Assembly: GCA_951406725.2 (NCBI GenBank)
Contig: OX597836.1
Coordinates: 14,508,001-14,572,000, forward strand
Source: Octopus vulgaris
Taxonomy: Eukaryota
Length of the DNA stretch: 64,000 bases
Direction: 5' to 3'
The first letter of the stretch is position 1, and the number at the start of each line of letters is the position of its first letter. A program made the position numbers and the translations under genes. The notes under the pieces are model-generated. The model saw only the letters and a list, made by a program, of their open reading frames with translations. It was not told the DNA's origin and made no database searches. Below are positions 40,176 to 50,879 of this stretch, one piece after another.

Positions 40176-40661
40176 ATACAAAATTTAAAGGACTGACCAC
40201 TAAAAGTGGACGGTCAACATGCTAGGTATAGACGTCAAATCGCTATTTTCCACAAAGAATATGTTCTCAAATAAAAACCCAGCACGAACCAAAGCATTAA
40301 AAATAAGCAAGACAAATGAAAATATACGAAATAAAAATGATTACCTATGTACCGATCAGTTTCGATTGTTATTATCCACGCATGTGGATACCCGCAATCT
40401 GCAAATTGTATTTCTATATGACAGACTATGCTGATGAGATTGCGGGTATCCACATGCGTGGATAATAACAATCGAAACTGATCAGTACATAGGTAATCAT
40501 TTTTATTTCGTATATTTTCATTTGTCTTGCTTATTTTTAAAGCTTTGGTTCGTGCTGGATTTTTATTTGAGAACATATTCTTTGTGGAAAATAGCGATTT
40601 GACGTCTATACCTAGCATGTTGACCGTCCACTTTTAGTGGCCAGTCCTTTAAATTTTGTAT
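40176..40661. repeat. Long inverted repeat, 225-bp arms (40176-40400 / 40437-40661), 36-nt spacer; Penelope-type fold-back
   Basis: Arms are reverse complements with about 4 mismatches; this explains the twin ORFs 40219+ and 40618- that share an N-terminus. Confidence 0.95.
40426..40492 (+). ncRNA. Type I hammerhead ribozyme with minimal palindromic stem III
   Basis: CTATG-CTGATGA-GATTG[...]CAATC-GAAA-CTGATCAG-TA-CATAG: intact core, stems I and II pair, GUA cleavage triplet. Confidence 0.88.
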
Positions 40662-42322: not shown

Positions 42323-42755
42323 ATTACATCATTTGTAATCAAGCCTATGTTTGTTTTTGAAGCGCCGAAACGTATTGTAGTACAAGTAGAAAGGTGTACT
42401 TTTTTTTCAACGCGTAAATACTGATAGAACAGAATATATAGGATTGAATCGTTACAGAGCAGAAGAATCTGTCAGCAACCAGCCCAGGTATATGTATATG
42501 GTATATGTATATGTAAATGTGTTTATATGTGTGTGTGTGTATGTGTCTGTGTTTGTCCCTCCAACATCGCTTGACAACCGATGCTGGTGTGTTCATGTCC
42601 CCTTAACTTAGCGGTTCGGCAAAAAGAGACCGACAGAATAAGTACGAGGCTTAGAAAGAATAAGTCCTGGGGTCGATTTGCTCGACTAAAGGCGGTGATC
42701 CAGCATGGCCACGGTCAAAGGACTGAAACAAGCAAAAGAGTAAAGATATATATAT

Positions 42756-43091
42756 AAATAAATGAAAGAATGGAGTTGAACGACGAATTAACAAAATTCC
42801 TTTATTTTATTTTCGACATATGTTTCGAAGGCTGCATATTCCTAATTTCGAAGGAATAAGGGGTGCATTATGCCGCCTTCTCGTCAGGAAAAGTAAGGAA
42901 CTTATGTCAGCATCAAGATGCACAAAAACTTTTAGATGCCTGCCCACACGGAGCCCATAGCGATGAGAAGGCGGCATAATGCACCCCTTATTCCTTCGAA
43001 ATTAGGAATATGCAGCCTTCGAAACATATGTCGAAAATAAAATAAAGGAATTTTGTTAATTCGTCGTTCAGCTCCATTCTTTCATTTATTT
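42756..43091. repeat. Long inverted repeat, 127-bp arms (42756-42882 / 42965-43091), 82-nt spacer
   Basis: Arms are near-perfect reverse complements. Confidence 0.95.
42810..42892 (-). ncRNA. Type I hammerhead ribozyme with extended branched stem II and palindromic stem III
   Basis: Minus strand: TTTTC-CTGACGA-GAAGGC[...]GCCTTC-GAAA-CATATG-TC-GAAAA; GUC triplet. Confidence 0.88.
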
Positions 43092-44304
43092 GTATTACAA
43101 AAAACACGCAAATTTCCACACGATAGCACGTGATCTCTGCCCTAGGCATGTAGCTTCAACCGTGTTTTTCTGACGTGAATTTGCTACCCAGGTACCGGTT
43201 AACCGAATTATCCATAATAAGATAATTCATTCAACTACTCAATTATATATATATATATATAATATGCACATACATGCACGCACACACACACACACACACA
43301 CATATACATATATATATATACATACACACGCACACATATATAGATGTACATTTGAATGCATGAGAACACGCACGCACATATATCATTTTAGTAAATGTGT
43401 ATGTTTGTGCATGTTTTCTTGTGTGTGCTTGCGTGTGTGTTTGTTTGTGTGTATGAGTACGATCGGATATAGTATCGAATGCAGAATGGTACAGACTATA
43501 AACCAAGTTTCTATGTTTATTTGTTCCCAGAAGCCCTTCGAAAAAGTAATCAGTTAAGAAACCGATATGTTGGTTAATTGCCTATAAATATATAAAAAAA
43601 GTTAGTAATATAAATAAACAGAGATCGATATTAAAACAGCAGAACACATTGAGTAAATAGAATGACATGCAAACGTAAATCTATAAATACATGTGTATGT
43701 GGCTGTGTGTTTGTATGTATGTATATATATATATATATATATACGTATAATAAAGTGAAGTGACAAAGGAATTAGCGATTATGTTACAGCTGTTTCAGTA
43801 ATAGATATATCTATTTACAAATATATAATTATATATATATAAAGTGAGTGACAGACAGACAGACTGATTGATATAAAATATTTACATCTATATCCATATA
43901 AAGCCGTATACATGTAAATATATCCATGCATACATACATATATGGTGTTATTTATTTATATATCTGTCTGTCTATCTACATGTATGTAAGTGTGTGTGTG
44001 CGCATGCGTGTGTGTGTTGCGTGTGTTGTGTGTGTGCGTGTGTGTGTGTATGTGTGTTTGTGTGTGTGTGTGTGTGTGTTCTTAGATAATAGTATTTGTG
44101 GTGGTTTGGTGGGAATAATTGTGATAGTTCTTATCGTTGTGGTGATTATGGTGATGGTGATAATGATAATGATGACGACGAAGAATGATGATGATGATGA
44201 GGATGATGATGATCATGATTGTGGTGGTGGTAGTGGTGGTGGTGATGATGATGATGGAGATGATGGTCATATGATGATGATGGTGATGGTAGTGGTGACA
44301 AGAA

Positions 44305-49207: not shown

Positions 49208-49240
<33 letters not shown>

Positions 49241-49341
49241 GGAGTAAACACATGAATGTGAAACAAGGTGGAAAAAGAGTACTCAAATACCATTGGTAGA
49301 GTAATATGCTTTATTTAAAGCAGCAGAAAATTCAACAAAAC

Positions 49342-49379
49342 CTGTTACTCTGAGTTTCCCGTTGCCGTTCATCGGACAG
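49342..49379 (-). ncRNA. Minimal hammerhead ribozyme variant (CCGAUGA core) in a Penelope-like end fragment (~49239-49400)
   Basis: Minus strand: CTGT-CCGATGA-ACG GCAA CGG-GAAA-CTCAGAG-TA-ACAG. Confidence 0.65.
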
Positions 49380-49543
49380 TTTTTGCTAGCAAAAATTAAA
49401 TTTAGTAGGAGGTGTTTTCAGTAAACACCGCACAGCCATCGATGCCGATGGAGAAAGAGGTGCCCTGTCTAATTATTACATGATGGCATCGATGTAGATG
49501 TATGTTATAGAAATGAAAACGCCATCGACGTACACGAACGCAG

Positions 49544-49578
49544 TATAAAAAGGGGTAATTTACAACTGACACGCATTC
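49544..49578 (+). promoter_or_regulatory. TATA box and initiator-like motif upstream of the viral-type PLA2 ORF
   Basis: TATAAAA at 49544, GCATTC ~30 nt downstream, ATG at 49585. Confidence 0.5.
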
Positions 49579-49584
49579 GGCTGG

Positions 49585-49737
49585 ATGCCACCGATAAGGA
49601 AACACCTCCGGCGCAAAACCAAAGACGGCGAGTTCTACCAACCAGGCTACGAATTCCTTGGACCTGGTACAAACATATGCAAACGCAGATACGACACACC
49701 ACTAAACGCTATAGACACAGCAGTGGAGGCGCAATAG
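49585..49737 (+). pseudogene. Truncated parvovirus VP1u / adintovirus-Polinton type phospholipase A2 (endogenous viral element)
   Basis: Hand translation: MPPIRKHLRRKTKDGEFYQPGYEFLGPGTNICKRRYDTPLNAIDTA|VEAQ*. PGY.FLGPG is the Ca-binding loop; P.N..D.A leads to the catalytic HD, which is lost where the SINE begins at 49723. At 50 aa it is shorter than any ORF in the track. Confidence 0.8.
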
Positions 49738-50108
49738 CCCAGTGGTTAGGGCAGCGGACTCGCGGTCATAGGATCGCGGTTTCGATTCCCAGACCGGGCG
49801 TTGTGAGTGTTTATTGAGCGAAAACACCTAAAGCTCCACGAGGCTCCGGCAGGGTGTGGTGGCGACCCCTGTAGTACTCTTTCGCCTCAACTTTCTCTCA
49901 CTCCACTCTTACTTCCTGTTTCTGTTGTACCTGTATTTCAAAGGGTCGGCCTTGTCACTCTCTGTGTCACGCTGAATATCCCCGAGAACTACGTTAAGGG
50001 TGCACGTGTCTGTGGAGTGCTCAGCCACTTACACGTTAATTTCACAAGCAGGCTTTTCCGTTGATTCGGATCAACCGGAACCCTCATCGTCGTAACCGAC
50101 GGAGTGCT
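49723..50108 (+). mobile_element. SINE family C, full length
   Basis: tRNA-like head plus the tail shared with the 7606 copy. Confidence 0.85.
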
Positions 50109-50136
50109 TCCATCCATTCTTTTCTATTCTAAACCA

Positions 50137-50263
50137 TCGCTCGTTTTCACCAAAACAAGCGCTGGCAAACAAATCACTGCCCTAACCCCTTATAGGCGCC
50201 TTATAGGGGGGGGGTTAGGGCAGTGATTTGTTTGCCAGCGCTTGTTTTGGTGAAAACGAGCGA
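50137..50263. repeat. Perfect hairpin, 53-bp arms (50137-50189 / 50211-50263), structured 21-nt loop
   Basis: Arms are exact reverse complements; the apex has CCTTATAGG twice around GGCGCC. Confidence 0.95.
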
Positions 50264-50879
50264 GTAACAGGTTTTGTTGAATTTTCTGCTGCTTTAAATA
50301 AAGCATATATATATATATATAGTATATAAAGTATATATATATATATATATATATATATACTTAAGTGTACATATATAATTTTACGTATATATGTATATAT
50401 ACATATATATGCATATATATATGTACATGAAGTTGTGTGTACGTGTGTTTGTGCGTGTGTGTGTATGTATGTCTGTGTGTACATGGTTGTTTGTGTGTAT
50501 GTTTGTGTGTGCGTGTATGTATATGTGTATGTGTGTGTGTGAAGTACCACTCATTTGTCATTTCTTTGTCTTAGTCATTAACCAAAGATTAATTAACCTT
50601 TTTCCCTTTACTTCAGACGAAATGCTTCAATGACATCTGGCTTATGTTTATGTCATTAAATGCCTCTCTCTAATAAGCTAACCGTTAATTACAATGATTC
50701 CTAACAAAAACATAAAAGCCACAAATTTTTGGGTGATGGTCATAGTTGTGTAGATTCGATTATAGTCGATATCAACAATCGACAAGAACTTAATATTTTA
50801 TCGATCCTGGAAGTTACAAAAGGCTAAAATTGACCACAGTTAAATTTGAACTCAGAACGTAACGGGATGCAAGTGTTTC

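Follow-up and report, generated by a model that had tools for sequence, protein, structure and literature searches.

A probable parvovirus-like fossil in a likely Penelope-like fold-back of Octopus vulgaris, and related fossils with the capsid gene before NS1

Introduction

In the Octopus vulgaris contig OX597836.1 we analysed a stretch of 64,000 nt (hereafter the window, whose positions are used for the locus throughout), and found viral DNA enclosed by an inverted repeat. We consider it probable that this is a parvovirus-like fossil, consisting of two pieces of the viral genome and a SINE, which lies in the right arm of a TA-anchored, likely Penelope-like fold-back and is likely captured filler. 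The window fossil is dead, yet it led us to related fossils in which the capsid gene precedes NS1. If contigs of natural viruses confirm this order, the lineage would depart from a gene order that is stated to hold throughout the family; if the order is true, one may also ask how the replication protein can be produced first although its gene stands second. In addition, the patching of viral DNA into a retroelement fold-back at its joint is a candidate germ-line route for non-retroviral DNA viruses.

Layout of the locus

All genome-wide comparisons were made in the 2.8-Gb assembly, whose contigs are called C1, C3, C4, C14, C18, C20 and so on, and extracted loci bear L-numbers. The parts of the locus are as follows.

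49209..49238, no strand: left (TA)n run, the fold-back's target type, seen in the sequence; other copies also lie in (TA)n
49240..49395, minus: left arm, likely the pLTR end of a Penelope-like element, of a high-copy fold-back; layout compared in 29 copies
49240-49303: one-sided 64-nt tail, part of the left arm and found on this arm only
49342..49379, minus: putative motif of hammerhead shape, its core (CCGATGA) being non-canonical and its stem II mismatched, from sequence and variant counts
49380-49395: palindromic apex of the left arm
49396..49405, no strand: 10 nt at the left joint, viral or filler, matching neither the fold-back nor the C18 copy
49406..49584, plus: viral region upstream of the capsid gene, with two small stem-loops, a 24-nt motif (49456-49479) and TATAAAA at 49544; 72% identity to C18 over 49406-49721
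49585..49722, plus: first 46 codons of a PLA2-capsid (VP1-type) gene; 39/46 amino acids identical to C18
49722..50115, plus: full-length host SINE without target-site duplication, standing at the missing viral middle
50116..50136, plus: 21 nt of viral flank of the hairpin base, identical to the equivalent position in the C3 copy
50137..50263, no strand: 127-nt hairpin with a 53-bp perfect stem and an asymmetric centre, likely a viral terminal palindrome
50262..50308, plus: right arm of the fold-back, shortened to 47 bp, lacking 29 nt beside the apex and overlapping the hairpin by 2 nt
50304..50360, no strand: right (TA)n run, seen in the sequence

Much of this had been described in a first-pass annotation, and its basic measurements were confirmed. 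The 47-bp copies at 49304-49350 and 50262-50308 are inverted and identical at 47/47 positions. The hairpin is perfect, its two 53-nt arms (50137-50189 and 50211-50263) being 100% complementary around a 21-nt centre, and the 2-nt overlap with the right copy is the GA at 50262-50263. A TATA box (TATAAAA, 49544) precedes the PLA2 frame (ATG at 49585), and the SINE between the arms spans 49722-50115.

The fold-back and its Penelope affinity

A first look at the arm family gave 1662 candidates, of which 40 were scored, mostly at 96-99% identity, and the layout was compared in the best 29 other copies, chosen by their likeness to the window arm. An adjacent inverted arm is present in 25 of these 29; the 47-bp inverted ends are therefore the usual fold-back of this family. 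The outer end of the inverted arm falls at, or at most 6 nt from, the point matching 49304 in 23 copies, and the part just after the apex is deleted in four of the 29. Compared with intact copies, the right arm in the window lacks 29 nt directly after the apex, their place being taken by the insert. The possibility that the two 47-bp copies are independent insertions of a common repeat was thus not borne out, as they are the arms of one fold-back family in a one-event layout.

The window locus and most of the 29 copies are bordered by (TA)n. An insertion bias towards (TA)n is known in Hydra, Naiad and related Penelope-like clades, and it is because of the layout and the target type that we label the repeat as the likely end of a Penelope-like element. 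No open reading frame with the RT or GIY-YIG domains of the arm's own family was found in the 29 loci; at L017, the arm is joined to a piece that resembles the C-terminus of a PLE endonuclease, possibly that of another family.

A hammerhead had been proposed on the minus strand at 49342-49379. The shape is indeed present, but with CCGATGA as its core and mismatches in stem II the motif is non-canonical. CCGATGA is the core in most arms, and CTGATGA occurs in three of the 50 matched arms. No Rfam hammerhead model gave a match at E<=10, and Rfam otherwise returned miRNA-type matches to hairpins and microsatellites, all below gathering scores. At L012:1654-1690 a right arm begins at the predicted cut site, a hint of cleavage at this point in some of the family's RNAs.

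Two other fold-backs in the window had been likened to this one for their arm-filler-arm layout. The layout is common to them, but they have no sequence in common with the arm repeat; they (40176-40661 and 42752-43095) belong to other families, and are probably other Penelope-like ends. By eye, each has a hammerhead-like string near its centre, which in 40176-40661 is CTGATGAG...GAAAC with a long stem II. On C3, an open frame of 445 aa at L043:438-1775 encodes RT and GIY-YIG domains of Penelope-like type, both partial, and lies approximately 3.5 kb from the hairpin described below. This ORF was rejected, as it does not carry the window arm.

The PLA2 stub and its capsid gene

Against the Pfam family Phospholip_A2_4 (PF08398), the stub in the window scores 18.7 bits (E 0.0021), below the cut-off of 23.9, and in alignment it stops before the catalytic His-Asp of its relatives. 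The C18 paralogue and the public relative P0002 both passed the PF08398 cut-off. The parvoviral-type PLA2 of the first-pass annotation stands, but as a 46-codon stub ending before the catalytic pair rather than as a full ORF, and the window locus encodes no working PLA2.

The PLA2 cassette has one other DNA-level copy in the assembly, on C18 (72% identity), where it continues as a PLA2-capsid gene of 600 codons with two in-frame stops. The window and C18 stubs are equal at 39/46 residues, and their differences fall at codon positions one, two and three as 10/4/21, mostly at the third. Nine relatives were found in public assemblies, five of which are proteins of 606-621 aa without stops, and their longest contigs measure 2.0-4.5 kb. 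A search of the whole library gave 115 representatives at E<=0.001; the long protein P0077 (PF24514) among the representative matches was rejected as a false match driven by repeats. Scans of IMG/VR and of the JGI metagenomes with the capsid and NS1 found no relative.

The N-terminus of the capsid protein matches AAV VP1u. A PLA2 motif in the VP1 N-terminus is found in most parvoviruses, though not in all, and parvoviral capsid proteins are single jelly-rolls that assemble into T=1 shells. No Pfam family matches the capsid body. Its Atlas features (0.93-0.94) point mostly to parvoviral capsid clusters, with a smacovirus capsid at rank 3. An alignment-based model of the capsid has low confidence (pLDDT 36.7), and its top Foldseek matches are parvovirus capsids (E ~5e-4, TM ~0.2). 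A single-sequence fold of the C18 capsid with stops read as X was unusable (pLDDT 30). Members of the Parvoviridae have linear ssDNA genomes of 4-6 kb that are packaged in virions, and the relatives' contigs of 4.0-4.5 kb fit this size.

PLA2 domains are also known in Polinton-like viruses, and Polinton/adintovirus elements carry a protein-primed polymerase, an integrase and a double jelly-roll capsid. We find such an origin of the PLA2 very unlikely, as the domain forms part of a parvovirus-like capsid protein whose gene neighbours NS1; no Polinton/adintovirus-type genes occur among the ORFs scanned at C18 and C3.

The hairpin and the 24-nt motif

The window hairpin is likely a terminal palindrome of the virus. 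Its centre is asymmetric, with the longer G run on the outer arm. One other DNA-level copy is present in the assembly, on C3 (87% identity), and it has the same 21-nt neighbour as the window copy. A 24-nt motif lies 50 nt inward from the stem base of the C3 hairpin, and in the window it recurs at the same distance inward from where the viral homology begins on the left; the two are identical at 23 of 24 positions. A genome-wide search for the hairpin-core pattern gave three loci only (window, C3, C1), and the control gave none. The C1 core forms a long palindrome located approximately 550 nt downstream of an NS1 fragment with the 24-nt motif on either side.

Whether the PLA2 and the hairpin co-occur elsewhere had been raised as a check on the first-pass reading. 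They are not joined at other loci, but the 24-nt motif is common to both, and on C1 the hairpin core has NS1 as its neighbour; this ties the PLA2 promoter, the hairpin and NS1 to one virus lineage, without any of the pieces being joined. Parvovirus genomes carry hairpin palindromes at both ends. Here we detected a single type of hairpin, which both in the window and on C1 lies towards the 3' end of the coding strand, and a left-end hairpin at no locus. The single match to the hairpin core in IMG/VR encodes neither capsid nor NS1, and we took it as chance.

The window stem has no mismatches, and the C3 and C1 copies are decayed, so that the window locus keeps the assembly's one undamaged copy of the hairpin. 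At L103:3940-4310 (C1), the long palindrome around the core is imperfect, with a tandem duplication of ~60 nt in one arm. The C1 NS1 fragment has a unique 47-nt inverted duplicate in (TA)n. Inside the C3 hairpin, L043:5412-6050 contains a TGACGTCA site, a (TA)n run and two inward-facing GTAAGT donor-like sites, and has no match to capsid or NS1; a similar TGACGTCA followed by (TA)n is seen on C1. This hairpin end possibly holds an inward-facing promoter.

NS1 and gene order in the related fossils

As NS1 reference we used P0149, a natural public relative that is not in the window. It matches Parvo_NS1 (E 3.8e-16) and AAV Rep (E 1e-8), corresponding to an SF3 helicase, and has no match to Pfam Rep_N, the HUH endonuclease domain of parvoviral NS1. 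The Atlas clusters that come nearest to it consist of full NS1 proteins, part of which carry Rep_N. A Parvo_NS1 search of the genome gave eight loci, and searches with P0149 and the capsid gave more; gene order was mapped in 24 ten-kb regions.

NS1 of the P0149 type maps beside the capsid family at C14, at two sites on C20 and, weakly, at C18. The capsid gene is upstream of NS1 on one strand at four independent fossils: C14; C18; C20 at 32.07 Mb; and the C20 pair at 34.47/34.49 Mb, which is 98% identical and was counted once. These four loci share at most 69% DNA identity, in short stretches. The C18 fossil has a LINE between the two genes, and its NS1 match, with E 0.001-0.002, is weak. At C20 32.07 Mb, the interval from the capsid stop to the likely start of NS1 measures 93 nt and contains a TATA box; the NS1 there has a large internal deletion. 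At none of the 24 regions is an NS1 end followed by a capsid start, the capsid is absent after NS1 at the two loci having an NS1 end and trailing sequence, and no locus mapped in these regions shows an ambisense layout.

An awkward observation is that the C18 locus also carries a duplicated 5' piece of NS1 (L041:5450-5772 and 8591-8884, 89% identity), with one copy on each side of the capsid gene. Both duplicates end at the same base, and the upstream copy meets the capsid promoter at the point where the viral homology of the window starts. We read this duplicate as the product of a rearranged or circular template; the viral genome may have been circular, which would give the same capsid-NS1 adjacency.

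Five loci (L063, L064, L065, L066 and L061, on C9, C29, C5, C12 and C14 at 64.3 Mb) hold a second NS1 lineage, 26-30% identical to P0149, one of them with a 332-aa open frame. In the 24 regions mapped, no capsid match was found at the loci of this second lineage. L061 has pieces of both NS1 lineages within 2.5 kb. The C20 pair (L100/L101, 34.47 and 34.49 Mb) stems from a segmental duplication, at least 9.4 kb long and 98% identical between its copies, in which the capsid-NS1 fossil is present twice.

The chances seem to us about even that these fossils stem from an unnamed and still circulating cephalopod parvovirus-like lineage with the order hairpin, promoter, PLA2-capsid, promoter, NS1, hairpin, for which Penelope joints would be a recurring entry to the germ line.

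Origin of the window locus

The suggestion that a Penelope insertion holds DNA of a hairpin-ended virus has held up, as the arms are the family's normal arms and the filler, which had only looked viral at first, belongs to the parvovirus-like lineage defined by the C18 capsid, its relatives and the NS1 neighbours. We infer that the capture took place at the centre of the fold-back, and the steps may have been as follows. Two cDNA ends of the element would have been joined head-to-head in a (TA)n run. A near-complete viral genome, spanning approximately from the base of the left end to the right hairpin, would then have been patched into the joint by way of short microhomology, which on the right amounts to 2 nt; this would have happened either at insertion or when the palindrome broke later on. 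A SINE would subsequently have inserted 21 nt inside the hairpin base, its other end becoming joined within the capsid gene, or alternatively two SINE copies may have recombined; either way, approximately 3.5 kb of capsid and NS1 would have been removed. The remnant would then have been inherited, as it is common to runs labelled as two different organisms. A second junction of the same arm with capsid sequence, on C4 (see below), speaks for this capture model, but it is the single such case in 24 other regions. We saw no empty site, which we also count against the model.

With the capsid-first order, the two viral pieces would be the near-left and right ends of the genome, and the size of the relatives suggests that ~3.5 kb is missing between them. 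Because the stem is perfect compared with the decayed C3 and C1 copies, the viral DNA appears to be approximately as young as the arms, unless palindrome correction kept the stem clean; this state of the stem fits a recent entry. The SINE family has 4390 candidates, the best other copy being 97% identical. The SINE in the window diverges from the family majority at 11/393 positions, six of them near-private, and the arms at 2/203; these ages do not differ significantly (Fisher p 0.24-0.72) and do not order the events. A target-site duplication of at least 8 nt is found in 22 of the 29 nearest SINE copies, a few of which may be microsatellite coincidences, and none is found at the window SINE.

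This absence of a duplication, together with the indistinguishable ages of SINE and arms, would also fit an origin of the whole insert in one retrotransposition event, in which the element's RT jumped serially from right-arm RNA to the 3' hairpin end of the virus, to SINE RNA and to the capsid region before the left arm was joined. All four parts, namely right arm, hairpin end, SINE and capsid stub, point the same way on the plus strand, and the start of the right arm is 3-5 nt away from the site where the hammerhead is predicted to cut. Two of these jumps, however, would have to land at or leave from internal viral positions, and the SINE has a 3' joint like those of ordinary insertions. The right arm's first bases are present after the apex as well, which places the insert inside a right arm already begun. 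We regard serial jumping as unlikely, though it survives better than the other alternatives.

Somewhat less likely still is that an older viral remnant with its SINE was enclosed later by the arms, through local rearrangement or two insertions. On C4 at 132.9 Mb, the same arm is fused directly to an inverted piece of an existing capsid fossil (E 1.9e-6), a joint that may be an inversion of an older fossil; C4 is the one region among the 24 other 10-kb regions where the arm is joined to viral DNA. The arm repeat is also very common, and the SINE is nominally more diverged than the arms. Against later enclosure, the arms are identical at 47/47 positions in a one-event layout, with a long tail on one side and a short end on the other; neither inner joint has a (TA)n target, and the viral stem is undecayed.

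The possibility that the assembler mis-joined the right half (hairpin and right arm) at a palindrome beside two high-copy repeats depends on the read support of the joints. Four runs hold at least half of the sampled words, and runs X5-X20, with smaller word shares, were left out. On the left, an X1 contig covers 49367-49746 and an X3 contig 49368-49701, both with no differences, and an X4 contig, under another organism label, covers 49366-49746 (381 nt) with five; X1 or X3 may be the assembly's own sample. The contigs of X1, X3 and X4 reach 28-30 nt into the arm, and those of X1 and X4 reach 25 nt into the SINE, in both cases below the 31-letter bar. The right joints (SINE-hairpin-arm) are spanned by none of the listed contigs, and the right side rests on the assembly. 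The hairpin bins have depth in X1 and X3, to which the C3 copy contributes, and X4 has none on the hairpin; the raw-read run X21 gave six reads only, none on the viral part. The hairpin is nevertheless distinct from its C3 counterpart (87%), the assembly offers no other source for it, the 21-nt flank is the correct viral neighbour, and the right arm completes the family layout. We find a mis-join improbable.

The tidy layout might suggest an undescribed composite mobile element made of arms, PLA2 and hairpin, as the first-pass annotation had offered as its second option, or a PLA2 of Polinton/adintovirus type, but this is the least credible explanation, given that the cassette and the hairpin each have one other copy, at different loci and without these arms, and that the PLA2 is the N-terminus of a parvovirus-like capsid near Parvo_NS1-type genes. 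The locus is a one-off fossil, with no machinery to move.

Comparison with known viruses and elements

The papers compared here are cited from portions of their text. We found no published description of the capsid-first order or of viral capture in Penelope fold-backs, in a search that covered few subscription journals and one supplement (PMC5013282); in the portions of PMC9616810, PMC13282606 and bioRxiv 2026.07.22.740005 considered, neither is described. That supplement (Francois et al. 2016) lists NS fragments of Sepia, Euprymna and Octopus and one Octopus VP fragment. Its Sepia and Euprymna helicase pieces resemble P0149 by eye, and the lineage was therefore glimpsed in 2016; its Octopus bimaculoides piece resembles the second NS1 lineage of the assembly. 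The fragments listed there differ from our loci in being short and single-gene, and the text and rows consulted give no gene order, terminus or integration route.

The lineage is filed as parvovirus-like, in no subfamily. It shares with the Parvoviridae a PLA2 at the capsid N-terminus, an NS1 with an SF3 helicase, a hairpin and the occurrence of broken fossils in host DNA (PMC11357303, PMC13426907). Contigs of 4-4.5 kb are a further common trait, as is the TATA box ahead of the capsid gene; at C20, NS1 is preceded by one as well. In the text consulted of the 2024 review PMC11357303, NS on the left and VP on the right is given as the order of all parvoviruses, whereas here the capsid is upstream of NS1 on the same strand at four loci; the capsid body here also differs in having no Pfam family match.

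A partly similar arrangement is that of the megaparvoviruses, in which a PLA2 ORF lies upstream of NS1 and the capsid downstream (PMC13426907). The Swazi bat megaparvovirus lineage shares with our fossils the PLA2-bearing ORF upstream of NS1, but it has a separate, PLA2-free capsid ORF downstream of NS1 and a genome of ~6.4 kb (PMC13426907), whereas here PLA2 and capsid form one ORF upstream of NS1.

As for the fold-back, Penelope-like elements, including those that target (TA)n such as in Hydra, show a one-sided tail, an inverted 5'-truncated copy and a (TA)n target (PMC8557442), all of which are seen here. In the Penelope-like PAc, an ATG lies 26 bp before the cut (PMC11167929), and here one lies within the hammerhead region, 27 nt before the predicted cut. 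Our family departs from the described Penelope-like elements in its tail of 64 nt, compared with 30-40 nt there, in the non-canonical hammerhead core of most copies and, at this locus, in a fold-back centre that is filled with viral DNA.
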